Source: a virus. Taken from it: DNA of 41,169 nucleotides. The notes beneath the pieces were generated by a model that worked only from the letters and a program-made list of their open reading frames with translations, did not search any database and was not told where the DNA came from. Both the position numbers and the translations under genes were made by a program. The stretch lies in IMG/VR virus record IMGVR_UViG_3300029535_000013; one strand, written 5' to 3'. Shown here in pieces: positions 23,365-40,225 of the stretch (position 1 is the stretch's first letter; each line of letters begins with the position of its first letter).

Positions 23365-25019
23365 GTTACAAAGTCTATGCAGGCACCCAGACCGCCGTAG
23401 GCGTATGGGACACCAAAGCCTGCATCTATGACCCGACTGGCGAAGACCTGCGCACTACGGCTACGCTGCTCATCTCCCCGACTCTCACCCGTGAGGCCGG
23501 TAAGGCTGGCAGTTTTGAGTTTACACTCCCGCTGGGCAATGTTGCCCACTCGGCGCTGCAAAAGCTCAAGACCATTGTGGAGGTAGAGCAGGACGGCACG
23601 CCCATCTGGCGCGGGCGGGTCATGAGCCACGACATGGATTTTTACCTGAGACAAAAAGTGTACTGTGAGGGTGAGCTCGCGTATCTCAATGATACCGCGC
23701 TCACCCCTTATCGGTACCCAAATATCAGCATCCGGGAATTTTTGGAAAATGTCATCCGCAATCACAACAGCCAGACCGACAAATACAAAGCCTTTACGGT
23801 GGGCGATGTCACTGTTTTTGCAGAAGGCCCGCAGGAGAGCTTTCAGACGGTCTACATGCGCGGGTGCGTAGCAAAATACCATAGAGACAGCGACGACGAA
23901 GTCGACTATTGGCTAGAGGACGCTGACGGAAGATGGCTATGCGATACATCAAGTGACTATGATCTCCCAGCTGGGTACATTAACGGAGGCAGTGTGATAC
24001 GCATTGTCTCCAATGATGGCCGTGACCCTAGCAGCCCTTCCTATGTCACGACGTATACAGTGGAGCGAAACGTGGCCTACAAAAATGGCAATTTCTATTC
24101 ACTGAGTACTGTGCAGAAAGATTCGAAATACATCTACACCGTCGACACCACCCCGCTGGCGGGCTGGAGGCTGACCGATGATGGAGCGATTCAGCTCTAC
24201 AATCCCAGTACGGGAATATGGTCGGTCTGCACGGGTTACTATCTGCACGACTTCGACGCCTCGACCAACGAGGCCCTCGATTTTGGTGATGGCAAGAACT
24301 TCGGCACCACGTGGGACATCCTGCAATCCGAGCTGACGGACGTGTACGGCGGCTACCTTGTCGTGCGGTACTCAGACGACGGTAAAACGCGGTATCTGGA
24401 CTATCTTGCCGACGTAGCGGAGAGCAACACGCAGACGATCGAGTTTGGCGTAAATATGCTGGACCTCAATAACTATGTCAAGGCCGATAACATCGTCACC
24501 CGGGTCATCGCGGTAGGCTACCAGAAAAAAGGCTGGTGGATTTTTAAGAGTACCAAGACCATCCAGGAGCAGGCCGACGACAGAGCGGCACAGAGCTTCT
24601 ATGGTATTATCACCCGGGTCATTGTCATCGACGGTAAGTCGATTACAAGGCAAAAGCTGCTGGACGCTGCGAACGAAGAGCTCCGGAAAAATCTAAGATA
24701 CTATGATGGCATTGAGGTCAGCGCTATTGATTTGCGTGATGCAGGTATCAACACTGAGCGCCTGAGCTGGATGAAGAAGACCCGCATTATCTCAAAGCCT
24801 CACGGCATTGATACACCGTTGGTGTTGACCAAAATTGTCGAGCCGCTGGACGCGCCCGACAAGAAAAAGTTTACGTTTGGGACGAGTTTTTACTCTATCT
24901 CAGACCTGCAGGCCCTCAGCAGCCACAAAGCGTCTATGGCGTACAGTATCGCTTTAAGCTCTATGGGATACCTCAACGGCAATCCGATACCCACTACAAG
25001 CAAAACGTCAGCACAGTAA
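23361..25019 (+). CDS. tail-associated protein (Tal, prophage endopeptidase tail family N-terminal region)
   Basis: AGSFEFTLPL...IVEVEQDGTPIWRGRVMSH...VYCEGELAYLNDT matches the prophage tail endopeptidase pattern. Confidence 0.75.
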   Translation: MSYKVYAGTQTAVGVWDTKACIYDPTGEDLRTTATLLISPTLTREAGKAGSFEFTLPLGNVAHSALQKLKTIVEVEQDGTPIWRGRVMSHDMDFYLRQKVYCEGELAYLNDTALTPYRYPNISIREFLENVIRNHNSQTDKYKAFTVGDVTVFAEGPQESFQTVYMRGCVAKYHRDSDDEVDYWLEDADGRWLCDTSSDYDLPAGYINGGSVIRIVSNDGRDPSSPSYVTTYTVERNVAYKNGNFYSLSTVQKDSKYIYTVDTTPLAGWRLTDDGAIQLYNPSTGIWSVCTGYYLHDFDASTNEALDFGDGKNFGTTWDILQSELTDVYGGYLVVRYSDDGKTRYLDYLADVAESNTQTIEFGVNMLDLNNYVKADNIVTRVIAVGYQKKGWWIFKSTKTIQEQADDRAAQSFYGIITRVIVIDGKSITRQKLLDAANEELRKNLRYYDGIEVSAIDLRDAGINTERLSWMKKTRIISKPHGIDTPLVLTKIVEPLDAPDKKKFTFGTSFYSISDLQALSSHKASMAYSIALSSMGYLNGNPIPTTSKTSAQ

Positions 25020-25030
25020 AGGAGTAAATC

Positions 25031-26392
25031 ATGGCAAGTTTTGATGAGATCGTGAGCAAAATGACGGCAGCCATCAAGGGCGTCCGTGAGGCTGTGCTGG
25101 GCAAGGATGTGCGCGAGTTTATCGCCAGCGGCTATGAGAGCGTGCTGGATGCTTATAAGCAGCTTGATGGGAATGCGAAGCAGCTAAAGGAAAATGTGGC
25201 TGATATAAATAGTAGATTTTCAAGATACAATCTTTTTGATAAAGATACTGCAAGCATTGTAGATATAATGTGCAATGATTCTCTTGTATTTATTTCCCCT
25301 GGTGTGCAGTCTATAATTTGGAAATGCGAGCCAAATACTACATACACAATCTCGTGGACTGGTATTAGCGGTAACAACAGATACATTATTTATACTTCGA
25401 AGGAAAAGCCAATTGTTGATAAATTATCAAAGGCATTGCGAAAAATAGAGATGTCTAATACTGTTAGTGGTTCAAACAGACATTATACAACAATTACAAC
25501 AACGAGCGAAGAAAACTATCTCCTGCTGTATTTCTGGATGTACGCAAGTGGAGGTAATGCTACACTTGACACAATGCAGATTTCAACTGGAAATCGGTTG
25601 CTCGATTATGTTCCTTATTCGGACTACGAAATGCCAAATTTGAAACTTGTGCCACACCAGTTTGATGATATCACTATTAATATAACAAACTGCACTGATG
25701 AAATGGCAAACCTGTTGGGTCGCCGAAATCTTGGTGCATTGGACAAGGGATATATTTGCCTTGTTGCTGATGATGGATATGCAAAAGTCAGCAACGTTAC
25801 ATTTCCGATAGCTAAAGAAAAGAATATCCCAATCACACTTGCATTATGGACAGATTCTGAAGTTGTTACAAATCCAACATTGCTTGCAGAGCTAAGAACA
25901 ATGATTGCTAATAACAATATCGGAATATGCCAGCATGGTGTAGGGCGTTTTACAGATTATTCGCCTAAAGAACTTTACAATTATCTTATCAGCGAAAAAG
26001 ACAAATGGGTAAATCTTTCGCTAAATGTAGCGGGAGTTGCATATCCCAATCATAGCAGAAACGAGCAAGTTAGAACTATTTGCGGTGCATTATACGGTGT
26101 ATGTTGCAGTGGTGGTCCGACACGCCCTATGGTTTACTCGCATGACACAAACGGCGCAAGGTCAAATATTTTTGATTTATACAGGATATCATTATACAGC
26201 GAGAATGAAAACTATCTAAAGGGCGCTTGCGATTTTGCAAACTCAAATAAAAAATTGGTAATTATCTTTTGGCATGACAGTGATATTTATGGTGACGATG
26301 ACCAAATTAACAAATTGAAGAACGTAATAGATTATGCGAAAACTATCGGACTTACATTTGTAAATGTAGGAGATATTCCACTAATTAACTAA
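25031..26392 (+). CDS. receptor-binding / tail fibre protein with C-terminal polysaccharide deacetylase-like domain
   Basis: The GC-rich N-terminal anchor (about aa 1-55) is followed by an AT-rich body. Motifs ICLVADDGY, CQHG, VAYPNH and VIIFWHD resemble a NodB/CE4 fold. Confidence 0.65.
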   Translation: MASFDEIVSKMTAAIKGVREAVLGKDVREFIASGYESVLDAYKQLDGNAKQLKENVADINSRFSRYNLFDKDTASIVDIMCNDSLVFISPGVQSIIWKCEPNTTYTISWTGISGNNRYIIYTSKEKPIVDKLSKALRKIEMSNTVSGSNRHYTTITTTSEENYLLLYFWMYASGGNATLDTMQISTGNRLLDYVPYSDYEMPNLKLVPHQFDDITINITNCTDEMANLLGRRNLGALDKGYICLVADDGYAKVSNVTFPIAKEKNIPITLALWTDSEVVTNPTLLAELRTMIANNNIGICQHGVGRFTDYSPKELYNYLISEKDKWVNLSLNVAGVAYPNHSRNEQVRTICGALYGVCCSGGPTRPMVYSHDTNGARSNIFDLYRISLYSENENYLKGACDFANSNKKLVIIFWHDSDIYGDDDQINKLKNVIDYAKTIGLTFVNVGDIPLIN

Positions 26393-26434
26393 AGAGGGAT
26401 TTATCTAACCTTAAAAACAAAAAGGAGTCTTAAA

Positions 26435-27235
26435 ATGCTGCACACCATCCTCAACTTCCTCGTTTCCCTCTTCTCCGCCCTCTCCCGGGCGGCAGATGCC
26501 TCTACCTCTGACCCGGTGTCCACGGTGGACACCCAAAGCGCTGCTCCTCCCGGCTGGGAGGGCGCACCACCCTACCGATACATCGACGTGAGCCGGTATC
26601 AGGGCAAAATTACCCTCGACGGCTGGCGCAAGGTCAAAGCGGCTGGCTACAAGGGCGTCATGCTCAAGACGGTCTCCACCAACCGCAAGCTCTCCAAGCG
26701 GGCAGACGGGCTGTACATCGACCCTACCTTTGAGACCAACTACCGCAACGCCCGGGCTGCCGGGCTGGACGTGGGCGTGTACTACTACACCTATGCTATC
26801 AGCCACACCGGCGCAGACAAAGAGCTGGCTCTGCTGGCAGACGCTCTGCGCGGCAAAGAGCTGACTCTGCCGGTGGCTGTAGACGTGGAGGACAACAAGC
26901 TCAAGCAGCTTGGCCGACAGGCTTTGACTGACCTGACAGCCTACGCTCTGGCCCGTATCGAGGCAATGGGATTTTATGCCCAGCTGTACACCTACACCAG
27001 CTTCGCCAACACCCACCTTTACATGGGCGGCGCGGCGCTGACCCCCTACGACGTGTGGCTGGCCGACTATACGGGCAAACCGCCTGCTGTTACCTTTAAG
27101 TACAACTCCCACCAGCACACCAGTAAGGGCGCTGTGCCGGGCATCTCCGGCAACGTAGACCTCAACGTGACCACCGTCAACTACCCCAAAATCATCCGTA
27201 AGAAGGGCCTGACCCGTCTCCGGGAGGGCGCATGA
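26435..27235 (+). CDS. GH25 muramidase endolysin with N-terminal signal sequence
   Basis: YIDVSRYQGKI...GVMLK...VGVYYYTYA...VAVDVEDN...GNVDLN matches the GH25 pattern. The N-terminus MLHTILNFLVSLFSALSRAADA is hydrophobic. Confidence 0.8.
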   Translation: MLHTILNFLVSLFSALSRAADASTSDPVSTVDTQSAAPPGWEGAPPYRYIDVSRYQGKITLDGWRKVKAAGYKGVMLKTVSTNRKLSKRADGLYIDPTFETNYRNARAAGLDVGVYYYTYAISHTGADKELALLADALRGKELTLPVAVDVEDNKLKQLGRQALTDLTAYALARIEAMGFYAQLYTYTSFANTHLYMGGAALTPYDVWLADYTGKPPAVTFKYNSHQHTSKGAVPGISGNVDLNVTTVNYPKIIRKKGLTRLREGA

Positions 27236-27489
27236 GCGACGCGATCATCGTAGCCATTATCACCGGCGGTCTGAGCCTGATCGGCGTGATCGTCTCCAAC
27301 AACCGCACCGCCCAGAGCATGGACGCCAAGCTGGACAAGCAGCAGGCTGTGACCGAAACCAAGCTGGAAGAGCTGACCCGGGAAGTCCGGACACACAACA
27401 ATTTTGCCCAGCGCATCCCGGTGCTTGAAGAACAGATGAAGGTGGCAAACCACCGCATTGCAGACCTCGAAAAAGAGAAAGGAGAGTAA
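27232..27489 (+). CDS. holin-like membrane protein (one N-terminal TM segment plus coiled coil)
   Basis: AIIVAIITGGLSLIGVIVS is a TM segment. ATGA overlap with the endolysin gene. Confidence 0.5.
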   Translation: MSDAIIVAIITGGLSLIGVIVSNNRTAQSMDAKLDKQQAVTETKLEELTREVRTHNNFAQRIPVLEEQMKVANHRIADLEKEKGE

Positions 27490-27492
27490 TAC

Positions 27493-27831
27493 ATGGCAAC
27501 AATCAATAACATTTTGGGCGTCATTCCCGTGCCGGTGGCCCTCGTGCTCATGCTGGGCGGGTTCATCTTCTACGCACTGGGCTGCGTCCGACTGGGCTAT
27601 GGCGCAGCGGTAAAGCCGCTGGTGCTGGACCTCATCGAGCAGGCGGAGAAGGAAATCCTTGGCACAAAGCGCGGCGCAGAGCGTAAGGCGTGGGTCGTCA
27701 AGATGCTTCGCGCCGCCCTGAGTACCAGCAAATACGGCAGGCTCATCAGCTGGGCCATCACCGATGAGACCATCGGCATCGTTATTCAGTTTTTCTTTGA
27801 CCGCGCCCGGGCGGCGCTGGAAAAGCAGTAA
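27493..27831 (+). CDS. holin (LL-H family-like)
   Basis: N-terminal TM segment ILGVIPVPVALVLMLGGFIFYALG, then LIEQAEKEILGTKRGAERKAWVVKML. Confidence 0.65.
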   Translation: MATINNILGVIPVPVALVLMLGGFIFYALGCVRLGYGAAVKPLVLDLIEQAEKEILGTKRGAERKAWVVKMLRAALSTSKYGRLISWAITDETIGIVIQFFFDRARAALEKQ

Positions 27832-27841
27832 GGAGATTATT

Positions 27842-28072
27842 ATGGCAAGCACTACATACGAGCAAACGCCACGCTATTATTATGATCAGCGTGCGTACCC
27901 GATTTTGTGGCCCGCAGTGTGTGACCATTTTGCCAACGGCGGCAAAATGGGACATTACCGTGCCGTGACCGTTCGAGTGCGCAACGCCGGACAGCTGCCG
28001 CAGCCTTTTTGGCTCGGTGCTGCCTGTGGCGGCGGCTCGTGTAGTGCTGCCCGCTTCGCTGCAAGGACTTGA
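27842..28072 (+). CDS. hypothetical protein
   Basis: AAGGAG RBS. 76 aa. Overlaps the next ORF in another frame. Confidence 0.4.
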   Translation: MASTTYEQTPRYYYDQRAYPILWPAVCDHFANGGKMGHYRAVTVRVRNAGQLPQPFWLGAACGGGSCSAARFAART

Positions 28073-28082
28073 CCGACAGCAA

Positions 28083-28262
28083 ATGACCGCCGCAATCAAA
28101 AACGCACCGCTTGGGAGGGTAGACCGTAAGATAGCCTTACTGCGGTACGTTGAGCGGCTCCCGCTGCCGGACATTGCAGCACAGACCCATTACAGCCGGA
28201 CGGCGATAGGCTACCGGCTGAAAGTTATTGATGAAAAGCTAGACGAAAGGAGCTCACCGTGA
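28083..28262 (+). CDS. small sigma-70 region-4-like HTH protein
   Basis: DRKIALLRYVERLPLPDIAAQTHYSRTAIGYRLKVIDEKL. The start is uncertain (GTG 28017 or ATG 28083) and the RBS is weak. Confidence 0.45.
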   Translation: MTAAIKNAPLGRVDRKIALLRYVERLPLPDIAAQTHYSRTAIGYRLKVIDEKLDERSSP

Positions 28263-28402
28263 ACCTCGAAAATGTTCCGACCGCAAATCTTGTTACAGAG
28301 CTTCGCAAACGCGAGGGCGTGGAAACGACCATTGTCGAGCCATATCAGGACGCAGAGGTCAGCGTCAACGGCCCTGCGCTGGTTCTTGTCGTGACGGATT
28401 GA
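28259..28402 (+). CDS. small conserved phage protein (BC1881-like, 47 aa)
   Basis: GTGA overlap start. The product ...LVTELRKREGVETTIVEPYQDAEVSVNGPALVLVVTD resembles a small family common in Firmicute phages. Below the ORF-track size cut-off. Confidence 0.5.
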   Translation: MNLENVPTANLVTELRKREGVETTIVEPYQDAEVSVNGPALVLVVTD

Positions 28403-28507
28403 TTGTGGTATAATAACATCAACAAATCCACCCGGCCTATCGAAGAAGCGCATTAGGGTGGATATTTGTACAACTGGCCAGTCTCCCGCGCATCCAGCGT
28501 GAGACGT

Positions 28508-28549
28508 AAAAAGCCCCGGTGCTCTGTTTGGAGCATCGGGGCTTTTTTT
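28508..28549. terminator. bidirectional intrinsic terminator
   Basis: AAAAA, then the 12-bp stem GCCCCGGTGCTC/GAGCATCGGGGC with loop TGTTTG, then TTTTTTT. It lies between convergent genes. Confidence 0.8.
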
Positions 28550-28551
28550 GT

Positions 28552-28989
28552 TTATTTGAGATATTCCCGCAGCGCCCGCAGGATGAGTTCGTTTCGGCTG
28601 CACTGCTCGGCATCTATCCGGGATGTCATCTTTTCGGCAAGCGGACCCGGGATGTAGATCGTTGCCTGTACATCCTTTGCGCCCTCGCTGCCAGCACCAA
28701 AGATGGCGTCGCACTGCTCCTCGCCGAGGTGCTCAAACGCCCACTTTTGCGCGATCTCATCGGAGAGAGGCACAATCTGCTCACCGGGAGCCGTCCATCC
28801 GTCACTACGTCGGACGGCGTATACAGTGGCTGCGTTGCCCATGCCGTAGATAAACCATTTGCCCGCCTTAGTGCGGTAAAGAGTCTCCTCACAGTGGTAA
28901 AAGCTGGTGTAGTCCTGGTCAGACTCCCAGTGTCCCATTTTTTTTGCGGTATCGGTGTCATAGCGAGAGCCGTTGATTATTTTGCGCAT
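28552..28989 (-). CDS. hypothetical protein with C-terminal ribbon-helix-helix (CopG/Arc-like) domain
   Basis: The C-terminus ATIYIPGPLAEKMTSRIDAEQCSRNELILRALREYLK fits the RHH pattern. The N-terminal 100 aa are of unknown family. Confidence 0.55.
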   Translation of the reverse strand: MRKIINGSRYDTDTAKKMGHWESDQDYTSFYHCEETLYRTKAGKWFIYGMGNAATVYAVRRSDGWTAPGEQIVPLSDEIAQKWAFEHLGEEQCDAIFGAGSEGAKDVQATIYIPGPLAEKMTSRIDAEQCSRNELILRALREYLK

Positions 28990-30086
28990 GGTGTATCCTC
29001 CGTGTTATCAAAGTTATCGTCGTCTGCGGTTTTGGGCGTGGGAAGCCCGGCCAGCTGCCACCCTTTATAGCTCGATGCCGGACGTGATTTTAAGCGAGTC
29101 CCCCGGATCGATGTGGCAATCGCCCTAAATCCTGCTGCGATCCTTTTTGCGGCAACGTCCTCTGGGATGTCGTCGTCAAAAAACAGCAAATGATTTTGAC
29201 GAGCCCAGTCTAACAGATTGACCGCCTTGTGAGTGTTGCCGTCCGGGTCAATCAACCTCCAAACGAGAGCCTCGCGATTTTGTGGGCCTTTTTGGCCTCC
29301 CGGCAGTTTTAGAGCCGCCGAAACACCTACTGACTGCAATGTCTGCATATGCGCCTGGGTCTCCGGGTCTGCTGTCCGGCGGGCCTTTGCCTCATCCGAC
29401 CATGCGGCATTGTTGATATGACCATTTTTTAGCCGCAGCGCAGCGCCGCATTTTTTTGAGCAGCATTGCTGGTTTACCTCACTGGGAGAGGCATAAAAAG
29501 GCTTGCCGCAGATGGCGCAGATCTTTTTTAGTGACTTGCCTTTATGGTCGGCAGTCTCCTGATCATACGGAGGCTGCTTTGAGGGCGCGACGGGTTGCTG
29601 GACGCGTCCGTCTTTTCTGTGCCGTCCTCGCTGGCAGCCGCAGCTCCTTGATAGTTTTACGGAGCTGTATGACATAACTCTATCATTGCCGCAAAGAGCG
29701 CAATGCACGACGACCATTGTGCATTTGTAGCCATCAGCCATGATTTTAGCCGGTGCCGTGCCGACGATGGAGAGATTGCCGAATGTTTTGCCAATCAGCC
29801 GGTCAGCAAGCGGCTCTTTGGGAGGCTTGGCGTCCGGCATCTTGGGCTTCGGAAGACCCGCAAGCGTCCACCCTTTATAAGTGCGCAGCCCGTGAGGTCT
29901 TTCCGGGTGCCGGAGCGCGTACCCCATCATCTGGACGCCCTCGGAGATCCGGGATGCGGCGTTGTCCGGTGCGGCATCCGGGAAAAACAATTTTACATTG
30001 TCCTGGCTCCACTTTGCCAGATCATCGACCTCGTGGCGCTCGCCATCCGGGCCGATGAGCACCCATGCGTACCCATGGGTGCTCAT
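28977..30086 (-). CDS. internally duplicated DNA-binding-like protein with central zinc-finger motifs
   Basis: aa 6-82 and 274-352 are clear repeats (W-L-I-PDG...LFF...YKGW-LAGLP-PK). The centre has CALCGN...SCGC and CAICGKPF...CCSKKCG. No nuclease motif seen. Confidence 0.6.
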   Translation of the reverse strand: MSTHGYAWVLIGPDGERHEVDDLAKWSQDNVKLFFPDAAPDNAASRISEGVQMMGYALRHPERPHGLRTYKGWTLAGLPKPKMPDAKPPKEPLADRLIGKTFGNLSIVGTAPAKIMADGYKCTMVVVHCALCGNDRVMSYSSVKLSRSCGCQRGRHRKDGRVQQPVAPSKQPPYDQETADHKGKSLKKICAICGKPFYASPSEVNQQCCSKKCGAALRLKNGHINNAAWSDEAKARRTADPETQAHMQTLQSVGVSAALKLPGGQKGPQNREALVWRLIDPDGNTHKAVNLLDWARQNHLLFFDDDIPEDVAAKRIAAGFRAIATSIRGTRLKSRPASSYKGWQLAGLPTPKTADDDNFDNTEDTPCAK

Positions 30087-30358
30087 TGCATCACCTCGAT
30101 GTCACAATCGACGGTGCAGTTTGGAGTCACGACATTGCCGTCCTCATCGACGGTGTAGTCGATGTCGCTGTTGGTGCCGTCAGCGTAGCTCTTGGCGTAA
30201 TCGGCCAGATACTCGACGTCCTCGACCTTGTAAGCGTCCAGATCGGCGTTGTACTCGAGGCCACCGGCCTCGAAGAAATCAGCCTCAAAGTGTGCGCCGT
30301 TGGCGGTATCGGTCATCTCGATGCTCAGGAGCTTGCTGCCATCATAAAACTTAGTCAT
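30083..30358 (-). CDS. small highly acidic protein (91 aa)
   Basis: 22 D/E against 4 K and 0 R by hand count. GGAGGA lies 8 nt upstream. It is the first gene after the consensus promoter. Confidence 0.6.
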   Translation of the reverse strand: MTKFYDGSKLLSIEMTDTANGAHFEADFFEAGGLEYNADLDAYKVEDVEYLADYAKSYADGTNSDIDYTVDEDGNVVTPNCTVDCDIEVMQ

Positions 30359-30404
30359 TGTCGTCGTCCTCCATCTGTTGTTTGGTGTTCCTCTTGACGC
30401 TCTT

Positions 30405-30433
30405 ATTATAGCATAAATAATTTATTTTGTCAA
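30405..30433 (-). promoter_or_regulatory. perfect consensus sigma-70-type promoter (TTGACA-17-TATAAT) for the minus-strand operon
   Basis: The minus strand reads TTGACA (30433-30428), a 17-nt spacer, then TATAAT (30410-30405). Confidence 0.75.
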
Positions 30434-30467
30434 CATTAAATTTGAGAAAATAAATTATTTATGCTAT
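30408..30467. repeat. perfect 21-bp inverted repeat (candidate operator) with 18-nt centre
   Basis: atagcataaataatttatttt at 30408-30428 is the exact reverse complement of 30447-30467. Confidence 0.9.
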
Positions 30468-30470
30468 CTT
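30442..30470 (+). promoter_or_regulatory. mirrored plus-strand promoter TTGAGA-17-TATCTT
   Basis: It sits symmetrically to the minus-strand promoter, and its spacer is the right arm of the inverted repeat. Confidence 0.45.
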
Positions 30471-30548
30471 TTTTGTCCTTCGTTGTGCGTTCGTTGTCTC
30501 TTGGCTCTCCCTAAAAAGGTAAACTGAGCGCAAAGGGAGGGAAGCCCC

Positions 30549-30926
30549 ATGTGGCACAAGTTTAACCCTAACCCCCACGGGAGCAGCGTCGGAGACTGTG
30601 CTGTGCGGGCGGTAGCAGCGGCCACCGGCCAGAGCTGGGAGCAAGCGTATATTGCACTTGCTCTCACTGGTTACGCCCTCGGCGATATGCCCAGCGCAAA
30701 CCGCACATGGGGCGCATACCTCCAAAAGCAGGGTTACAAGCGCCGAATGGTGGAAGCGGACTGCGCCACCTGTTACACCGTGGCAGATTTTGCCCGGGAG
30801 TACCCGCACGGCGTGTATGTACTGGGCTGCTCCGGCCACGTTCTGGCCGTCATCGACGGCAAGTGGTGGGACAGCTGGGACAGCGGCGCGGAATGCCCGA
30901 TCTACTACTGGTATAAGGAGGACTAA
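30549..30926 (+). CDS. hypothetical protein, possible papain-like Cys/His fold
   Basis: AAAGGGAGGGAAG RBS. Contains VGDCAVRAV and later GCSGHVLAVIDGKWWDSWDS. A peptidase role is inference only. Confidence 0.55.
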   Translation: MWHKFNPNPHGSSVGDCAVRAVAAATGQSWEQAYIALALTGYALGDMPSANRTWGAYLQKQGYKRRMVEADCATCYTVADFAREYPHGVYVLGCSGHVLAVIDGKWWDSWDSGAECPIYYWYKED

Positions 30927-30929
30927 ACG

Positions 30930-31379
30930 ATGCCGTACAATCCATATGGCTATCAAATGCCAAACTACTACGGGCAGCCTATGCCTGACCAGCTCACGCA
31001 GCTGCGGCAGAATGCCGGGTATCAGCCGCCCATGATGAGCCAACCGACAGGGCAAAGCTCCCCATCCACGCCTCCGATCATCTGGGTGCAGGGCGAAGAG
31101 GGCGCAAAAGCCTACATGGTAGCCGCCGGGAACAGCGTGCTCTTGATGGATAGCGAGAACAGCGCCTTTTACATCAAGAGCACGGACGCAAGCGGAATGC
31201 CGCTGCCGCTCAGGGCCTTTGATTACAAGGAGCGCACCACGGCAGCTAAGATGCCCGCTCAGGCCGTCCAACAGCCCGGCGGGGAGTTTGTCACCAGGGC
31301 AGAGTTTGACGCCCTGGCAGCCCGCTGTGCAGCGCTGGAAAAGCAGGAGCCCACAAAAACCGAAACGGAGGTCAAGTGA
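30930..31379 (+). CDS. hypothetical P/Y/Q-rich protein
   Basis: The N-terminus reads PYNPYGYQMPNYYGQPMPDQ. The core reads IIWVQGEEGAKAYMVAAGNSVLLMDSENSAFYIKS. The C-terminus is helical. Confidence 0.55.
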   Translation: MPYNPYGYQMPNYYGQPMPDQLTQLRQNAGYQPPMMSQPTGQSSPSTPPIIWVQGEEGAKAYMVAAGNSVLLMDSENSAFYIKSTDASGMPLPLRAFDYKERTTAAKMPAQAVQQPGGEFVTRAEFDALAARCAALEKQEPTKTETEVK

Positions 31380-31381
31380 TC

Positions 31382-31609
31382 ATGGCAAATCCTCTTTTTA
31401 ATGCACTGGGCGGCGGCAAAGCATCATCCATGCCCGGCCCTATGGGCCAGTTCGGCCAGATGATGCAGCAGTTCCAGCAGTTCAAGGCTAATTTTCAGGG
31501 CGATCCAAAGCAGGAGGTGCAAAAGCTCCTGCAATCCGGGCGGATGAGCCAAGACCAGCTCAACCAGCTTCAGGCAATGGCTCAGCAGTTCCAGCAGTTT
31601 TTACACTAA
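31382..31609 (+). CDS. hypothetical Q-rich small protein
   Basis: MANPLFNALGGG...MMQQFQQFKANFQGDPKQEVQKLLQSGRMSQDQLNQLQAMAQQFQQFLH. GTG 31376 is an alternative start. Confidence 0.55.
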   Translation: MANPLFNALGGGKASSMPGPMGQFGQMMQQFQQFKANFQGDPKQEVQKLLQSGRMSQDQLNQLQAMAQQFQQFLH

Positions 31610-31670
31610 GTCGTAACCGTGGCCACGGTCGAGATACACTTTTTATCAAAAATTTCGAAAGGAGTACAAA

Positions 31671-32423
31671 ATGTCTCTTTCTTCTGACAACATCGGCTTG
31701 ACTATGCCGGTGCAGCCCGCCAATACCAACAACGGCAACGGCTTTGGCTTTGGCGGCGATGGTTCGTGGTGGATCATCGTGCTCTTCCTTTTCATCTTCT
31801 GCGGCTGGGGCGGTAACTGGGGCGGCAATCGCGCCGGTGCCGGCGCCGGCGTCGTGGATGGCTACATCCTGACCAGCGACTTCGCCAACATCGAACGCAA
31901 GATCGATGGCGTAAACAACGGTATGTGTGACGGCTTCTACCAGCAGGCACAGCTCATCAACGGCGTCCAGCAGACCGTGAGTAACGGCTTCATGTCCGCC
32001 GAGATCAGCCGTGCAAATCAGCAGGCCGCTTTCATGCAGCAGCTGTTTGCTATGCAGATGCAGGCACAGGATTGCTGCTGCGAGACCCGGTCTGCTATCC
32101 AGGGCGTCAACTACAATCTGGCTACCCAGTCCTGCGAGACCCGGAACACTGTGCAGAACGCGACCCGGGACATCGTAGACAACCAGAACCAGAACGCCCG
32201 GGCTATCCTGGACGCTCTCACAGCTCAGCGCATCGAGGCAAAGGACGCCAAGATTGCGGAGCAGAGCCAGCAGCTCTTTGCGGCCCAGCTCGCGGCCTCT
32301 CAGGCAGCCCAGAATAACTATCTGCTGAACCAGCTGCGGCCTACGCCCATCCCGGCTTATGCATCCTGCAACCCGTGGGCATCTGGCTCTTACGCCGGTT
32401 GCGGATGCGGCAGCTGCGCATAA
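31671..32423 (+). CDS. hypothetical single-pass membrane protein, G/N-rich N-terminus, Q/N-rich and Cys-rich C-terminal region
   Basis: TM segment WWIIVLFLFIFCGWGG. Contains DCCCETRS and SCETRN. Ends CNPWASGSYAGCGCGSCA. AAAGGAG RBS. Confidence 0.6.
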   Translation: MSLSSDNIGLTMPVQPANTNNGNGFGFGGDGSWWIIVLFLFIFCGWGGNWGGNRAGAGAGVVDGYILTSDFANIERKIDGVNNGMCDGFYQQAQLINGVQQTVSNGFMSAEISRANQQAAFMQQLFAMQMQAQDCCCETRSAIQGVNYNLATQSCETRNTVQNATRDIVDNQNQNARAILDALTAQRIEAKDAKIAEQSQQLFAAQLAASQAAQNNYLLNQLRPTPIPAYASCNPWASGSYAGCGCGSCA

Positions 32424-32514
32424 CCGAATCACGACAGCTTTTTGAGTGGTTGTTTCCAAAATGGAAATTCCCACATCAAAATGTTCAGCCCCTGAGCTGA
32501 TTTTGCAAACCAGA

Positions 32515-32543
32515 GCGCCGGGGCCGCAGTCCCGGCGTTTTTT
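32515..32543 (+). terminator. intrinsic terminator or attenuator inside the accessory operon
   Basis: Stem GCGCCGGG/CCCGGCGT, loop GCCGCAGT, then TTTTTT. It lies about 18 nt before the next ATG. Confidence 0.7.
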
Positions 32544-32561
32544 ATGAAAGGAGTCGATAAA

Positions 32562-32984
32562 ATGGCCGAATTTAGCAACTCTAACACCGTCAGTGTGGCA
32601 GCGGGTGAAAACCTTCCCCTGACCGAGACCGCGGTAAAAGCCCCTGCCTGCATCATGCACCGTGAGGGCAGCGGCCTCGTGACCCTGCGCGGTCTGACCA
32701 ATCAATGCAAAGCGCGCTTCAAGGTAAGCTTTGGCGGCAATATTGCCATTTCCACCGGCGGCACTGTGGGACCCATTTCCGTGGCGCTGGCTGTCGGCGG
32801 TGAGGCACTCAATAGCGCAACCGCCATTGTCACACCTGCTGCAGTCGAAAACTACTTCAATGTTTTTGTGGCAGCGTTCATCGAGGTGCCGCGCGGCTGC
32901 TGCGTGACTGTGGCGGCTAAGAACACCAGCGCGCAGGCGGTCAGCATTGCAAACAGCAACCTGATCGTTGAGCGGGTAGCATAA
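32562..32984 (+). CDS. BclA C-terminal-domain-like (C1q/TNF-like jelly-roll) protein, no collagen repeats
   Basis: GSGLVTLRG...ISVALAVGGEAL...RGCCVTVAAKN...ANSNLIVERVA. The ending resembles the BclA ending ...IIIEKVA. Assigned from memory of the family, not searched. Confidence 0.5.
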   Translation: MAEFSNSNTVSVAAGENLPLTETAVKAPACIMHREGSGLVTLRGLTNQCKARFKVSFGGNIAISTGGTVGPISVALAVGGEALNSATAIVTPAAVENYFNVFVAAFIEVPRGCCVTVAAKNTSAQAVSIANSNLIVERVA

Positions 32985-33000
32985 GAAAGGAGATAAAGCC

Positions 33001-33402
33001 ATGCTGGATAAACTGAACCATCTGAAAGATGAAATGTGCGACGAGCTCATGGAGCTGACCGACAAAAAGAACCGTTCCCCGGGCGATGTTGAGATGATCG
33101 GCGAGATCGTGGACATCATTCTGGACATCCACCGCATTGCGGACTACTGCGAGGGCGGCGAGTACAGCCGAACAGGCGAGTGGGAAGCTGACATGCGCGG
33201 GACTTTCGGCCACGATGCCGGAAACGGTTACAACCGGGGCAACAGCTATGCCAACCGTGGCCGACACTATGTCCGCGGCCACTACTCCCGCACGGATGGC
33301 CGGGAGCGCATGATCTCCGACATCGAGGACATGATGCAGGACGCCACCGGCGCAGAGCGAGACGCTTACAAACGCGCGGCGGACATTCTGCGCAACGCAT
33401 AA
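33001..33402 (+). CDS. hypothetical protein with basic G/Y/R/S-rich centre
   Basis: AAAGGAG RBS. Contains NGYNRGNSYANRGRHYVRGHYSRTDG flanked by acidic helices. Confidence 0.5.
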   Translation: MLDKLNHLKDEMCDELMELTDKKNRSPGDVEMIGEIVDIILDIHRIADYCEGGEYSRTGEWEADMRGTFGHDAGNGYNRGNSYANRGRHYVRGHYSRTDGRERMISDIEDMMQDATGAERDAYKRAADILRNA

Positions 33403-33420
33403 GGGAGGAGGGTGGCAAGT

Positions 33421-33753
33421 ATGGACATCGACGAGATTAACACCCATATCCACAAGCTGAAATGCGGTTCAACGGACTGGCAGAGCGTGGAGAAGCTTGC
33501 CGCTCTCTGCACTGTGAGAAATGAGCTGGAAGAAAAGCAGGCACCGGCGGAAATGCAGACTCAAGCGCTGCCTCCCACGTCGTACCCGGCGGCATACTCC
33601 ACAAAAGCAAATCCACAAAGCGAGTTCGTGGAAGCGGCCAGCGCCGCGCCATTTGGTGGCTTAATGGAAGTGCTTGATGAGCACATGAGCGCCATAAAGC
33701 TTGCATACCCGAAAGAGTATGAGTTGGTCATGCGGAAGATAACCGCATTGTAA
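33421..33753 (+). CDS. hypothetical protein
   Basis: ATG lies about 9 nt after GGGAGGAGGG. 110 aa. Last gene before attP. Confidence 0.5.
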   Translation: MDIDEINTHIHKLKCGSTDWQSVEKLAALCTVRNELEEKQAPAEMQTQALPPTSYPAAYSTKANPQSEFVEAASAAPFGGLMEVLDEHMSAIKLAYPKEYELVMRKITAL

Positions 33754-33874
33754 AACGACACAAAATGTGTTATTTTTACATGCAGCCAAAACTTGAAAAG
33801 CTAAATTTTTAAGCTTAATAAACTAACACGTGACTAACAAGTTTGACTTTATTATCGATAAAACGTAAAATAAA

Positions 33875-33924
33875 ACTGATTTGTAATCAGTGGGTTGCAG
33901 GTTCAACTCCTGTCACCAGCTCCA
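33875..33924 (+). other. attP core: 3' half of a tRNA-Thr(UGU) gene (anticodon arm to CCA)
   Basis: ACTGA-TTTGTAA-TCAGT, then GGGTT, then GCAGG-TTCAACT-CCTGT, then CACCAGC-T-CCA. No matching 5' acceptor or D arm upstream. It lies 110 nt from the 3' end of the integrase gene. Confidence 0.75.
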
Positions 33925-33930
33925 AAAATA

Positions 33931-33974
33931 AACGCACGAACGATAAAAACAAATCGTCCGTGCGTTTTTCTTTT
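33931..33974 (+). terminator. intrinsic terminator following the tRNA fragment
   Basis: 14-bp stem AACGCACGAACGAT/ATCGTCCGTGCGTT with one mismatch, an 8-nt loop, then TTTTTCTTTT. Confidence 0.7.
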
Positions 33975-33975
33975 G

Positions 33976-34034
33976 CTTAAAATGCCTTAAAATCTCCTGG
34001 ATGAACGTGACAATCTAACAAACAATCTAACAAA
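33976..34034. repeat. short direct repeats (candidate integrase arm-type sites)
   Basis: CTTAAAAT at 33976-33983 and 33986-33993. Tandem CAATCTAACAAA at 34011-34022 and 34023-34034. Confidence 0.5.
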
Positions 34035-35168
34035 TCAATACTTCATCTTTTGCATTTCCCGCAACAGATAATCCGGGTCATTGTGGGAGACGTACTTGTT
34101 GGCCGTGGTGGAGAAATTTTTGTGACCCAAGATGGCCTGTACGGCGGTCTTTTCCAGGCCGCACTCCACCATCTTGCTACTGGCCGTGTGGCGCAGCGTA
34201 TGCGGATGCACCCCCTCTATGTGGCACTCCTGCATCAAGGCCCGAAACTTTGTAGCCACGTTGCGCTTGTCCAGCTTTGTACCGGCTTTGGACGGTATCA
34301 GCCACTCACAGCCGCTGTCAAGCATCCAAAAGGCAATGATTTTATAAATGGGGTCCAAAATAGGGATAATGCGGTTTTTGCCCGCCTCGGTCTTTTCGCC
34401 GCCCTGCATATACCGCTCTTTTAGATGCACATCGTCGCAGCGCATGGAGAGCAGCTCATCGATACGCATACCGGTGTAGAGCAGCACCATTGCGATTTGT
34501 GCTGTCTGCCCAAGCTTCGGGTCGTCTTGTCGGCTGCTTATCTGCTCGATCTCCTGAGCGGTCAAGGTTCGCTCTGCCTTGCCTGTAGCCGCTGGGAGCT
34601 GCAAGAGCATGGCATAGTTTTTGTTTATGATGTCCTGAGCCATTGCCCACTCACAGATCTGGCTGAAAAGTGTGCGCTGCTTTTCGCAGGAGCTGCGGGA
34701 GAGGCCCTTTTCCACCATCTGGTCAATCACCTGTTGATAGTCTGCGGCTTTTAAGTCCCGGAGCTGTCGGTCATACAGCGGCGCAGCCTTTGCATAGGCC
34801 AGCTCATAACCCTTTTTCATATCAGTGCTGAGCTTGTCAAATTTGGGCTGCGCTTTCCATTGGGCATAGGCATCCGCAAAAGTACATTTCAGACGCGCTG
34901 CGGGGGTGTTCTGGGCGTTGTAAGCGTCCAGTGCTTGTACTGCTTCACCCGGCGTCGCAAACGTCCCCAGAACGTCTCGCTTGGCTGTCAGGGCCACATA
35001 CGGTTTTGACCTCGTCCCGCTCAACTTATATACACTGCCGCTGCCCTTTGGGCGGCGGCGCTTTTTTCTTTGCTGCGGGGCGGCTTCGGGCTGCTTCTTT
35101 CCGCAGTATGGGCAAAAAGATGCATCATCCGGTATTTCCCGACGGCAGCAGGCGCGAATGCACTTCAA
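34035..35168 (-). CDS. int: tyrosine integrase with N-terminal zinc ribbon
   Basis: HPHTLRHTASS...LGHKNFSTTANKYVH-type catalytic region. The N-terminus reads CCRREIPDDASFCPYCG. Confidence 0.9.
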   Translation of the reverse strand: MKCIRACCRREIPDDASFCPYCGKKQPEAAPQQRKKRRRPKGSGSVYKLSGTRSKPYVALTAKRDVLGTFATPGEAVQALDAYNAQNTPAARLKCTFADAYAQWKAQPKFDKLSTDMKKGYELAYAKAAPLYDRQLRDLKAADYQQVIDQMVEKGLSRSSCEKQRTLFSQICEWAMAQDIINKNYAMLLQLPAATGKAERTLTAQEIEQISSRQDDPKLGQTAQIAMVLLYTGMRIDELLSMRCDDVHLKERYMQGGEKTEAGKNRIIPILDPIYKIIAFWMLDSGCEWLIPSKAGTKLDKRNVATKFRALMQECHIEGVHPHTLRHTASSKMVECGLEKTAVQAILGHKNFSTTANKYVSHNDPDYLLREMQKMKY

Positions 35169-35761
35169 AGCTCTTCACCTCGCTTTGCGGTATAGTCGGC
35201 CTCGCCGCTCTTCGCGGCCTCTTTTCCCGCCTGGTATGCCGACTGCAGCAGACTCACCGGAGGCTGGACTTCCCACGGAATCGGGTCTGTTCCTGTAGCC
35301 ACGGCGAACTCGTAATTGTCCAGTATTTGGCCGCAGACGGATACCTTGTTTTGCAAGGGAGTATGCAGATTTGCGCACACCTCAGCAAACACCGCCGGTG
35401 GATAGCTGCCATGTCGGCCCAAAAGGATAAACAGCACCATCTCTTTTACAATTCGCGGCGCTGTGCGAAAGTATTCTGTAAGCATCTCATCCAACTCTTC
35501 GTCTGATTTTCGCTGTATGGGCTCTTTGTAAAGCTCTGGGTGCAGCATTTCTTGCATGGCGGGGAGCGGAGAAGCCCCGCAAGCCTCGAACCAGTCCATT
35601 ATCTTGTCAGCCGGTGGGCTGGACGCCCCACACTCCCAGCTCTGGACCGTAGCCTTTCCCTTGTTGATACGACGGGCCATGTCGACTTGGCTCAAGCCTG
35701 CCGAGACTCTGGCCCGCGCCAGTGCGATACCAAGCTTTTCCGCAGTAAAGTAGCTCATCAA
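35165..35761 (-). CDS. XRE-family HTH protein with extended C-terminal domain
   Basis: LARARVSAGLSQVDMARRINKGKATVQSWECG. Overlaps the int start, so the two are probably co-transcribed. Confidence 0.65.
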   Translation of the reverse strand: MMSYFTAEKLGIALARARVSAGLSQVDMARRINKGKATVQSWECGASSPPADKIMDWFEACGASPLPAMQEMLHPELYKEPIQRKSDEELDEMLTEYFRTAPRIVKEMVLFILLGRHGSYPPAVFAEVCANLHTPLQNKVSVCGQILDNYEFAVATGTDPIPWEVQPPVSLLQSAYQAGKEAAKSGEADYTAKRGEEL

Positions 35762-35915
35762 TTATAACCTCACAAATTTCCATGCCATAAAAACAAAAAG
35801 TGACATGGGGAAAACCCATGCCACTCGACAGAGCAGAAGTCCTTCAAGTTTTCCCATAAAATGGTAAAATCTAAAACAAGTTGGACAAATTGAACAAAAA
35901 CAGAGGTGAAATAAA

Positions 35916-36026
35916 ATGGATTTCGAGCAAAGAAACGGCAAAGAAAACGAAATGACCATCATTGACGGGATGCCTGCCACCATTTTGACCGGCACGGCCC
36001 GAACACCTGAACCTTGGGAGGACTAA
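35916..36026 (+). CDS. possible small ORF (36 aa)
   Basis: AGAGGTGA lies 6 nt upstream of the ATG. Below the ORF-track size cut-off. Confidence 0.3.
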   Translation: MDFEQRNGKENEMTIIDGMPATILTGTARTPEPWED

Positions 36027-36028
36027 AG

Positions 36029-36238
36029 ATGGACAAGATGAAGCTGTTTTGCACCCACATCCGCGCCGCGCTGGCCTGCTATGAGGATATGCCGCCCGAG
36101 GGGCAGGCTCGGGCTCGACTTTTCGTGATCCGCAAGTCCGGGGATCTCCGGCAGCTCAAGGCCGCAGCAGACGCACCCGGTGGGGAGCTTGCCGCTGAAC
36201 TGTTGCAAAAAATGCAACAACCTTGCAACCACGGATAG
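36029..36238 (+). CDS. hypothetical protein (69 aa)
   Basis: GGGAGGA lies 6 nt upstream of ATG 36029. Confidence 0.45.
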   Translation: MDKMKLFCTHIRAALACYEDMPPEGQARARLFVIRKSGDLRQLKAAADAPGGELAAELLQKMQQPCNHG

Positions 36239-36361
36239 CAACGTGCATATTTTGCACATTGCTCGTGCAAAACGCGCGTATTTAGCAAAAAGTCAGCGTA
36301 AATTTCAACGATTCATCGCAAATGCTAAATTTTTCGCGCATTTTTGCGCGATTAAACGCGC

Positions 36362-36391
36362 TTGACGCGATACAATCAACGGTTGTATAAT
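36362..36391 (+). promoter_or_regulatory. near-consensus promoter TTGACG-18-TG-TATAAT pointing into the 3' end of the minus-strand sie gene
   Basis: TTGACG at 36362-36367, TG at 36384-36385, TATAAT at 36386-36391. Flanked by the direct repeat CGGTTGT at 36380-36386 and 36393-36399. Confidence 0.55.
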
Positions 36392-36414
36392 TCGGTTGTG
36401 AACAGGGCCGCACA

Positions 36415-36984
36415 TCAATATCCCACAGCAGTGGCTCCGTATTCCGCCTGGCCTTGGCTAAATCCCTCAAACTCCAGCTGTTCAATCAGACCGGAGCGAG
36501 AGAAAGACATGGAATTGATATAATTTTTTGCTCTTATTGCAGCCTGTTCGTTCCAGTCGGCGCCACAATGATCTACGGCATAAGTAGCATCTTCCGCGGA
36601 ATATCCTTCAAACTCAAGCTGACTTTCAAGGCCGCTGTAAGAGAATCCCATACCGGCACTCAGGTAGTTTTTAGCAGCCCGCAAAGCGTTTCTCTGCCCC
36701 ATTGTAAGGCTATCATCGGCAGAAATTGACGATTTTACGGACGTGCTGCTCTTTGTTCCGTACGTTGAACTTGTCGTGCTGGAAGAAGGGGTAATCATCA
36801 TAACGAACACGATCAGCGCAACACTAACAGCGACCGCGCATCCGCATCCGTGACCTTTTTTCTTCTTTTCAGGCTTTTCGTCTGATTCAATAGCTGTTGT
36901 CACGGGACCCGAAGCAACAGATGCTCCACATTCAGGGCAGAATTTCACGTTCTCAATTTCAGCTCCGCATTTTGGACATTTCAT
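36415..36984 (-). CDS. Ltp-family superinfection exclusion-like protein, zinc ribbon plus TM anchor plus two Ltp repeats
   Basis: MKCPKCGAEIENVKFCPECG, TM segment CAVAVSVALIVFVMMI, then QRNALRAAKNYL...LESQLEFEGYSAEDATYAV...DWNEQAAIRAKNYI...LIEQLEFEGFSQGQAEYG. GAGGTG lies 6 nt upstream of ATG 36984. Confidence 0.7.
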   Translation of the reverse strand: MKCPKCGAEIENVKFCPECGASVASGPVTTAIESDEKPEKKKKGHGCGCAVAVSVALIVFVMMITPSSSTTSSTYGTKSSTSVKSSISADDSLTMGQRNALRAAKNYLSAGMGFSYSGLESQLEFEGYSAEDATYAVDHCGADWNEQAAIRAKNYINSMSFSRSGLIEQLEFEGFSQGQAEYGATAVGY

Positions 36985-37073
36985 AAAACGCACCTCACAT
37001 ATACAAAAATAGGCAGCCAACCCGCTGCCGAAAAACTAAGTTATCAAGGAAAATGCCAAAGGAGGAAAACAAA

Positions 37074-37205
37074 GTGCAAGAAAATAGCACAAAATTGATG
37101 AAAGAAACCACAGAATGTGTTATACTTGAGAAAATCAAGCTTGCACTTTCCCTTGGTATCGACGTGGATAAACTCTTAAAGGAGGCAACGCAAAATGTCG
37201 AATAA
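37074..37205 (+). CDS. possible small ORF (43 aa)
   Basis: AAAGGAGG lies 8 nt upstream of GTG 37074. ATG 37053 is in frame and is an alternative start. Confidence 0.3.
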   Translation: MQENSTKLMKETTECVILEKIKLALSLGIDVDKLLKEATQNVE

Positions 37206-37572
37206 TACGCTTCTTTTCATCATCGCCGTGTTTGTTATCGCAATGTTTGCGATTCTCGCTTACGAGTTCCTTAATCTCAATGACTTTGCACTTTTTCAGT
37301 CTAATCCCAAACAGGAGCCGGAGCAAAAGTGCGTCGGCATCCCTTTAGAGTACCTTAAAACAGAAGTTACTTATAAAGGTGTTACCCTTGCAGACCTTAT
37401 GGAGCTGTGCCCTGATACGCATTTCCATATCAAAGACGGTCTTGGCGGATACCTTTCCATTACACTCGGCAGCAAAGAAGCAAGAGCACCGCGCAAATAC
37501 AGATCTGTATACGTTACCAGCCTTGACCCTTGCTCCTATGAGCTGGAAGTTTCAGACTCTTCGCTTCTTTGA
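37195..37572 (+). CDS. hypothetical membrane-anchored protein
   Basis: AAAGGAGG RBS. N-terminal TM segment LLFIIAVFVIAMFAILAY. Lower GC than the phage backbone. Confidence 0.55.
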   Translation: MSNNTLLFIIAVFVIAMFAILAYEFLNLNDFALFQSNPKQEPEQKCVGIPLEYLKTEVTYKGVTLADLMELCPDTHFHIKDGLGGYLSITLGSKEARAPRKYRSVYVTSLDPCSYELEVSDSSLL

Positions 37573-37925
37573 GTCACCAAAAGCGTCAATAACGTACTCA
37601 CAACAGCAGAGATCACCGCAATGGCAGCGCTTTGAAAGAACTGTCTGCGGCTGATTCTCTGCTTTCTTTGTTGTTCAAGGAAGTAGGTTCGCCCCTTAGC
37701 GGTCAGAATCATGCACGGCACCACGACAGCACCGTTGTCTTTCTGTTGGACTTTGCGCTGTATCTCGACAAGACCATCCGAAACCATCAGATCTGCAAGC
37801 ACCGGGGCATCCGCTTTGAACTTTTCCGCAAAAACGGGAGTCGGAGTGTCCGGCGCTGTCGGGCACTTCTCGTAAATATTAAGAAGAAAATCGAGCGCTT
37901 CTTCTTCCCGCTTCAGGTCAACCAT
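37536..37925 (-). CDS. hypothetical protein with C-terminal TM segment (possible winged-helix N-terminal domain)
   Basis: AAIAVISAVVSTLLTLLV lies near the C-terminus. It overlaps the stop of the CI-like gene, so the two are probably co-transcribed. Confidence 0.5.
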   Translation of the reverse strand: MVDLKREEEALDFLLNIYEKCPTAPDTPTPVFAEKFKADAPVLADLMVSDGLVEIQRKVQQKDNGAVVVPCMILTAKGRTYFLEQQRKQRISRRQFFQSAAIAVISAVVSTLLTLLVTQRSEESETSSS

Positions 37926-38274: not shown

Positions 38275-38286
38275 AAAAAAGACCTC

Positions 38287-40224: not shown

Positions 40225-40225
40225 C

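Follow-up and report, generated by a model that had tools for sequence, protein, structure and literature searches.

The 41,169-nucleotide viral stretch IMGVR_UViG_3300029535_000013 from IMG/VR (the window, meaning the whole stretch analyzed) contains an AT-rich control region from which one operon is read leftward (from 30358) and another rightward (from 30549) by back-to-back promoters. The last protein of the leftward operon, gp145, carries a ribbon-helix-helix (RHH) domain at its C-terminus. Judged from sequence comparison, gp145 is proposed to be an autorepressor resembling Arc, CopG and Reg576 that acts on a small dyad within each of the two promoters and shuts both of them, a reading to which we give a probability of roughly 55%.

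The leftward promoter, P_L, is located on the minus strand and consists of a -35 hexamer TTGACA (30428-30433), a 17-nt spacer and a -10 hexamer TATAAT (30405-30410), the latter directly preceded by a TRTGn motif, TATGC (30411-30415). The rightward promoter, P_R, combines TTGAGA (30442-30447) with a 17-nt spacer and a TATGC motif followed by the -10 hexamer TATCTT on the plus strand (30460-30470, hexamer at 30465-30470). The sigma-A features looked for were a -35 TTGACA and a -10 TATAAT separated by 17 +/- 1 bp, and a TRTGn directly upstream of the -10, the "-16" motif that is typical of Gram-positive promoters (PMC6570832). Both features, the spaced hexamers and the TRTGn extension, are present in P_L and P_R. 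In the promoter scan P_L matched 12 of 12 hexamer positions and P_R 9 of 12, each with a TG upstream of the -10. P_L is the sole 12/12 site in the scanned stretch 24000-41169; given the base composition of the window, about 0.007 sites of this quality would be expected over its full length. By their sequence both elements look like promoters for the host primary sigma factor, sigma-A, with predicted starts approximately 7 nt past the -10 hexamers, at 30398-30401 on the minus strand and 30475-30477 on the plus strand. An earlier note on this DNA had described a perfect minus-strand consensus promoter, a mirrored plus-strand promoter and a probable dependence on a host sigma factor, all of which agree with these results, and every one of its coordinates matches the sequence. 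It had also called the intergenic region AT-rich in a GC-rich genome, and the GC content is indeed 38% in this region and 17% in its core, compared to 54% in the window. A plus-strand TTGACG at 30394 (10/12 promoter match) was rejected as a further promoter. This hexamer is conserved, including in the relative L145, which has no rightward operon, and is thus more likely part of the leftward leader.

Both promoters are embedded in an inverted repeat of 21 bp with perfect complementarity (30408-30428 and 30447-30467), which extends to 26 nt at 96% (30408-30433 and 30442-30467). The result is a 60-bp near-palindrome (30408-30467) with 26-nt arms around an 8-nt centre (30434-30441), so that both -35 hexamers are positioned inside the arms. 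Shuffling the intergenic region 3000 times, and its AT-rich core likewise 3000 times, gave perfect inverted repeats of at most 11 and 12 bp, respectively, against the 21 bp observed. No second occurrence of the arm was found in the window with up to 3 mismatches allowed, and an Rfam search of the control region gave no match. Read on its own promoter strand, each arm has the sequence TTGA[CG]A-AAATAAATTATT-TATGC-TAT, that is, a -35 hexamer, twelve A/T bases, the TRTGn motif and the first half of a -10 hexamer. Ordinary promoter elements (-35, TRTGn and the first three -10 bases) thus make up 14 of the 26 arm positions.

Within each arm there is a smaller dyad, ATAAAT-N-ATTTAT, which the earlier note had missed. 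The candidate operator O_L (ATAAAT-A-ATTTAT, 30413-30425, centre 30419) lies inside the P_L spacer and the candidate operator O_R (ATAAAT-T-ATTTAT, 30450-30462, centre 30456) inside the P_R spacer, with 37 bp between the two centres. A scan of the window for dyad and arm located a single further match to the dyad, with one mismatch, at 25381 among open reading frames of the late strand, and none in the immunity region. To our knowledge the dyad is unlike the boxes of Fur/PerR/Zur, CodY, LexA, ArgR and Spo0A. As in RHH systems, where an operator of repeated subsites overlaps the promoter core, there is one 13-bp dyad per 17-bp spacer. On these sequence grounds the candidate operator is likely the 13-bp dyad, present in one copy per spacer, which makes two operators and not one shared operator. 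The 21-bp repeat, which had been presented as "one perfect 21-bp palindromic operator", is indeed perfect over 21 bp, but its arms do not behave as half-sites of one operator; a pair of promoters in mirror arrangement, with a separate small dyad in each, is the more fitting description. That a single regulator serves both promoters, as the earlier note supposed, is plausible because the spacers are identical.

The relatives of the control region were gathered by exact-match and pattern scans and later by searches with the regulator protein. The region was found in 28 contigs, and those with a named source are all human gut assemblies. About 110 bp, from CCTCTTGAC to TTCGTTGTC, are 89-99% identical across the 28 loci, the first gene on the left and the first on the right vary between loci, and the leader diverges past 30498. 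Among the relatives the P_L -10 hexamer is TATAAT, TACAAT or TATCAT and its -35 hexamer is in some cases TTGATA; the -16 motif varies only at R (A/G) and n (C/A), giving TGTGC or TATGA in place of TATGC. P_R has a TTGATA in one relative and a better -10 hexamer, TATATT, in several. Over 18 distinct versions of the control region the AAAT-N-ATTT core is unchanged in both dyads, and the arms changed jointly at two positions only. One of these (30414/30461, T:A to C:G in five sequences) is the R of TRTG, the other (30411/30464, G:C to T:A in L019 and L043) the n of TGn. Joint changes restricted to promoter-neutral positions argue against 21-bp half-sites and are compatible with concerted evolution of promoter copies. 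In the more distant but syntenic L110, whose regulator is 54% identical to that of the window, the left dyad is kept by a two-sided change (ACAAAT-A-ATTTGT). The upstream copy of the spacer motif in L110, L145 and L146 has a TTGAGA hexamer and a poor -10 and stands in tandem orientation. In the lineage of the window this copy is inverted instead, and its -10 (TATCTT or TATATT) is usable, which makes it the mirror promoter. In L131, L117 and L133 a deletion extends from the exact centre of the palindrome into the 369-residue gene of the leftward operon; the left arm and the P_L -10 are lost, and the right arm and the RHH gene are kept. A scan of genome contigs for one arm plus the -35 hexamer gave single-arm matches only, in AT-rich genomes. 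Most results of the scan for the two-dyad pattern were AT-rich giant-virus bins, which were regarded as chance, and the relatives newly added by it were L019 and L043 alone. One exact arm is also present in L013, but its surroundings there are AT-rich and unrelated, and the match was likewise discarded as chance.

The leftward operon (30358 to 28552, minus strand) comprises three overlapping genes downstream of P_L and ends at a bidirectional intrinsic terminator (28508-28547) with an 18-pair stem, preceded by an A-run and followed by a T-run. Its last gene (28552-28989, minus strand) encodes gp145, a protein of 145 aa that is the candidate repressor and consists of an uncharacterized N-domain and the C-terminal RHH domain. 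A profile built from 21 homologues matched only RHH proteins in the PDB, over residues 101-143; the best match was the Bacillus subtilis antitoxin EndoAI (4me7, E 3.8e-5), followed by weaker ones to CopG (E 0.25), NikR and MazE6. The Pfam model RHH_1 matched gp145 weakly and below threshold, and many homologues are annotated with PF01402. An AlphaFold2 model (mean predicted local distance difference test score 86) shows an N-domain rich in beta structure, followed by a flexible linker and, at the C-terminus, two helices (115-128 and 132-144), the RHH strand not being formed in this model of the monomer. Profile, annotation of the homologues and model all assign the C-terminal part to the RHH fold. 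For the N-domain no Pfam or NCBIfam model was found, and Foldseek gave no significant match in the PDB (best E 0.13, Pur-alpha being among the weak ones). The family is large; at E <= 1e-10 it numbers 2,554 clusters (roughly 2,500 at 50% identity), and elsewhere the N-domain is fused to XRE-type helix-turn-helix (HTH) domains (HTH_3) or to ROS/MucR DNA-binding domains. An N-domain with swappable DNA-binding heads is as expected of a regulator family.

The gp145 gene is present in all 21 control-region loci that extend at least 2.3 kb on the relevant side, and between promoter and gp145 gene there are one to three cargo genes that vary by locus. A near-consensus promoter is usually found upstream of the operon in the 80 loci with gp145 relatives. 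When 67 non-identical loci, found through protein relatives of gp145, were counted, a promoter matching at least 12 of 13 positions was located upstream on the same strand in 37, and on the opposite strand in 4; in some of these loci the promoter stands immediately upstream of the regulator gene. The spacer motif varies by group and tracks the DNA-reading strand of the RHH domain or the type of DNA-binding domain. Regulators of the VQATxYIP type are accompanied by ATAAATNATTTAT, those of the TPVSxLVP and ETASVILP types by AAAATAWTATTTT, the KKTVTFSLP type by ACATTTATATAAATGT, which is a perfect 16-bp palindrome, and the ATLTVSAG type by TTACACGAAACG. Where an HTH domain replaces the RHH domain (L184), the motif is the GC-rich CGCCCAATGGGCG. 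The motif usually occurs twofold, once in the spacer and once upstream, at a distance of 21 to 37 bp. Co-occurrence, fold and spacer co-variation thus favor the RHH-tailed protein among the candidate regulators that the earlier note had named, whereas the XRE proteins are unlikely regulators, as the dyad is missing from the immunity region.

From the promoter elements, their conservation, the RHH fold, the co-occurrence and the co-variation, all drawn from sequence or model, we infer binding, repression and expression timing as follows. Host sigma-A polymerase would fire P_L, and thereby the three-gene operon, and the weaker mirror promoter P_R, and thereby the seven-gene operon on the right. 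As gp145 accumulates, it would bind both dyads as RHH dimers or higher oligomers, and occupancy between the -35 and -10 hexamers would prevent RNA polymerase from entering into a productive complex. P_L would thereby be subject to negative feedback, and repression of P_R would be coupled to it. On DNA that enters naked or is derepressed, both operons would first be active and would then be throttled as the repressor builds up; with autorepression, either a burst on entry or a steady level that is low would be expected.

Several observations weigh against this proposal. A 6-1-6 palindrome is not rare singly in an all-A/T stretch (about 1 in 64 per position), and the spacing of 37 bp between the dyads, about 3.5 helical turns, disfavors simple cooperative looping. 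In L008, L090 and L010 one half-site is broken without an obvious change in the protein. Common descent of entire cassettes could account in part for the correspondence of regulator type and spacer motif. Furthermore, the regulator types A and B have nearly the same spacer despite different predicted residues on the DNA-facing strand (Q/T/Y vs P/A/Y), and L108 and L109 encode an identical protein but differ in the -35-proximal part of the spacer. Finally, the L110 and L043 lineages possess the rightward operon without an arm-type P_R, which means that coupling of this operon to the repressor is not universal.

Alternatively, the arms might be an inverted duplication of one very strong promoter, in which the AT-rich spacer is kept for strength or DNA shape, symmetry is upheld by descent or by gene conversion between the arms, and no repressor takes part. 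This is unlikely, although the large share of canonical promoter elements in each arm and the restriction of concerted changes to promoter-neutral positions favor it, as does the second copy in L110, L145 and L146, which is tandem and not inverted, as for a duplicated piece of promoter. However, the 12 non-canonical spacer bases are the same in both arms and near-invariant across lineages, whereas the neighboring leader diverges freely. Moreover, unrelated cassettes of the same family have other spacers, some of them GC-rich, that contain dyads or repeats, occur twofold and track the type of DNA-binding domain, a pattern that a general requirement for AT-rich spacers leaves unexplained.

The dyads may instead be operators of another regulator, such as the immunity repressor or another XRE protein, the region-4-like protein encoded at 28017-28262, or a host factor, but we consider this improbable. 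Three XRE-type HTH proteins and one sigma-70 region-4-like protein are encoded in the window, and the gene of the latter is conserved beside the cassette in most relatives. Against this stand the absence of the dyad from the immunity region, with only the imperfect match at 25381 elsewhere in the window, and the finding that the spacer motif follows the DNA-binding domain of the RHH-tailed gene. By inspection, not by systematic tally, this gene is also the sole element common to all distant cassettes. Very improbable is a role of the palindrome as a DNA structure, be it a cruciform, a junction for recombination of modules or a hairpin promoter on single-stranded DNA. The sequence does fold into a hairpin as single-stranded DNA (-20 kcal/mol, z-score -9.1), and the region is a junction whose flanking modules differ between relatives, with the breakpoint of L131 exactly at the centre. 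However, in several lineages the second copy is direct and not inverted, so no hairpin is possible there, and module exchange is sufficiently explained by shared conserved sequence. In addition, the window encodes a terminase large subunit and thus belongs to a double-stranded DNA tailed phage, for which a single-stranded entry stage is not known.

The rightward operon (30549-33753, plus strand) has seven genes encoding proteins of 125, 149, 77, 250, 146, 133 and 113 aa and ends by the probable attP and the integrase gene. Its leader contains two direct repeats with an 11-nt period (CCTTCGTTGT and GCGTTCGTTGT, 30477-30497, plus strand), whose core TTCGTTGT at 30479-30486 and 30490-30497 corresponds in both positions to the repeat reported earlier. 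That an 8-mer occurs twice within 190 bp is not significant in itself (about 0.3 expected, an estimate), and it is the conservation of the two copies in relatives that makes them meaningful. Most relatives have CCTTCGTTGTn twice, the second copy of the window, GCGTTCGTTGT, being imperfect. The repeats are kept wherever the seven-gene operon occurs, including the L110 group, which lacks P_R, and L043, in which approximately 2 kb of other cassettes separate the control region from the operon leader. In these two contexts conservation of the leader begins abruptly at TTTTTGTCC.

A possible second promoter, P2, is formed by TTGTCT (30494-30499), exactly 20 nt and TAAACT (30520-30525) on the plus strand. 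In an alignment of 13 distinct leaders there are no indels as far as the -10-like hexamer; TTGNCN and TA[ACT]A[AC]T stand at a constant distance of exactly 20 nt in all of them, and the intervening 20 nt vary. In L088 the -10-like hexamer is TATAAT. By their sequence, leader repeats and P2 may be the rightward operon's own promoter module. A 20-nt spacer is too long for unaided sigma-A, and an activator bound to the repeats would therefore probably be needed. P_R would then be an additional, repressor-controlled input to the operon. As the L110 group and L043 have operon and leader without P_R, P_R is probably not the sole promoter and perhaps not the original one. A MerR-type promoter, for which a spacer of 19-20 bp with a conserved palindromic operator would be expected, was considered at 30494-30525 and rejected: the 20-nt spacing is fixed, but over the 13 leaders the spacer varies and no palindrome is shared. 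A leader RNA in which CCUUC of the repeats pairs with the Shine-Dalgarno sequence is possible but weak (z -1.4, consensus -4.5 kcal/mol, no real covariation) and was not adopted.

In L019 and L043 a hairpin much like the terminator at 28508-28547 is located only about 60 nt past the mirror promoter, and P_R would there yield a short terminated transcript and not an operon mRNA. The extra cassettes of L043 (7740-9800, approximately 2 kb) include a small RHH gene behind a repeat-rich promoter region and a leftward cassette that ends in an HTH protein and has dyads of the type GCTCA-N-TGAGC in and beside a consensus promoter. Six of the seven rightward-operon proteins match PHROG families of unknown function. 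The first resembles Bacillus phage proteins annotated 'putative peptidase', and the C-terminus of the 146-aa protein may resemble the C-terminal domain of BclA. A homologous five-gene module stands just past the endolysin gene in Butyrivibrio virus Ceridwen; none of the leader motifs was found in the region upstream of it.

In the leftward operon, the first gene (30083-30358, minus strand, Shine-Dalgarno sequence GGAGG at 30372-30368) encodes a very acidic protein of 91 aa with a net charge of about -19. No family match was obtained for it in searches of the operon proteins, and a function as a DNA mimic or in counter-defense is a guess only. The second gene (28977-30086, minus strand) encodes a protein of 369 aa with near-duplicate domains of about 75 aa at both ends (GY.W.LI.PDG...YKGW.LAGLP.PK) and a cysteine-rich, zinc-ribbon/HNH-like middle that matches PHROG families of HNH endonucleases weakly. 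PADLOC and NCBIfam returned no match for the operon proteins. When the neighboring protein encoded at 28017-28262 was included, its weak sigma-factor matches were the sole NCBIfam hits. This small protein, encoded just before the bidirectional terminator, has weak similarity to sigma-70 region 4 (extracytoplasmic function type) and is a candidate for the factor acting on the leader repeats.

The window represents a temperate tailed phage whose host is a Gram-positive bacterium of the gut. It encodes a GH25 endolysin, an integrase, XRE-type repressors and an antirepressor, and its terminase is closest to those of Streptococcus, Clostridium and Bacillus phages and of one human fecal contig. The control region is positioned between the lysis genes and attP. 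By the integrase gene, in an AT-rich gap (33750-34035), the stretch 33857-33913 shows a partial match to the Rfam tRNA model (25.9 bits, E 0.04) and probably represents the attP core, with a tRNA attachment site as its origin. As judged by eye, L108, one of the relatives, is integrated beside a tRNA-like sequence. Two tRNA genes, Trp(cca) at 8852-8927 and Thr(tgt) at 16169-16245, are located amid plus-strand open reading frames in the first half of the window. In the lysogeny region, the gene at 36415-37020 (minus strand) encodes a protein with a zinc-ribbon and Ltp-type lipoprotein repeats (Pfam Lipoprotein_Ltp, E 2.4e-27), likely a superinfection-exclusion factor.

A broader picture, possible but rather doubtful at present, is that gp145 belongs to a large unnamed family of phage regulators in which a common N-domain, possibly for sensing or oligomerization, is combined with interchangeable RHH, XRE-HTH or ROS/MucR domains. 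Each member would govern a portable, self-limiting cassette that unites a consensus promoter and its spacer operator with exchangeable cargo, the gene for the regulator and a terminator. Such cassettes might, in phages of Firmicutes, provide a short burst of establishment or counter-defense genes on DNA entry, and in the window the second operator copy would have turned into the mirror promoter, recruiting the conserved seven-gene module to the circuit of the leftward operon. If the repression by gp145 is true, the control region would offer GC-rich gut Firmicutes, for which genetic tools are scarce, a bidirectional pair of promoters that is compact, very strong and repressible. It would also give a role to a widespread uncharacterized phage family that joins the N-domain to an RHH or other DNA-binding domain, and the genes between lysis module and attP would be a separately controlled unit. 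The general view of phage promoter regulation would be unchanged.

A close parallel is the immI region of phage P22. In P22, one 21-bp operator lies under two overlapping promoters, whereas here there are two separate 13-bp dyads in non-overlapping, back-to-back promoters with their -35 hexamers 8 bp apart. Common to the two regions is a gene within one of the divergent units that encodes a small RHH protein as the repressor, here the proposed repressor gp145; in P22, Arc acts on a symmetric operator in the promoter core and represses the divergent promoters Pant and Pmnt, its own promoter included (PMC2724298), as gp145 is here proposed to do. In contrast to Arc, gp145 has an additional N-domain of about 100 aa, and neither Arc nor Mnt was among the hits of the gp145 profile, nor was a specific similarity to Arc detected. 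Without homology to Arc or Mnt, and with two operators and non-overlapping promoters, the control region is not a member of the immI group, though it would work like immI.

Reg576 of the Bacillus plasmid p576 is an RHH repressor that silences several strong sigma-A promoters including its own (PMC6294495). The strong promoters have two copies of the operator, and repression leaves a transient burst after DNA entry that is like zygotic induction (PMC6294495). This system is found on a plasmid and not in a phage, its operator is a dual direct heptamer, TTATCCC, and Reg576 itself, a small RHH protein, lacks an N-terminal domain but has an additional helix at the C-terminus. Its binding is experimental, that of gp145 predicted. 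CopG of pMV158 is an RHH autorepressor that binds a 13-bp palindromic element in a Gram-positive sigma-A promoter, Pcr, and hinders RNA polymerase (PMC2724298). It controls a single promoter, however, and is a bare RHH domain of 45 aa, and the match of gp145 to CopG is at the level of the superfamily only. RHH antitoxins of type II toxin-antitoxin modules provide, with EndoAI, the best match for the C-terminal domain and autoregulate their own operon, as is likewise proposed for gp145. The RHH domain of gp145 stands behind a large N-domain, however, and its partner genes vary between loci. Searches of the operon partners with Pfam, NCBIfam and PADLOC detected no toxin, and the operon is thus not a toxin-antitoxin module. 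The design proposed here is classical, in that an RHH autorepressor would act on operators within the cores of divergent promoters, and what is new is the instance itself, the family of the uncharacterized N-domain and the modular pattern of the cassettes.

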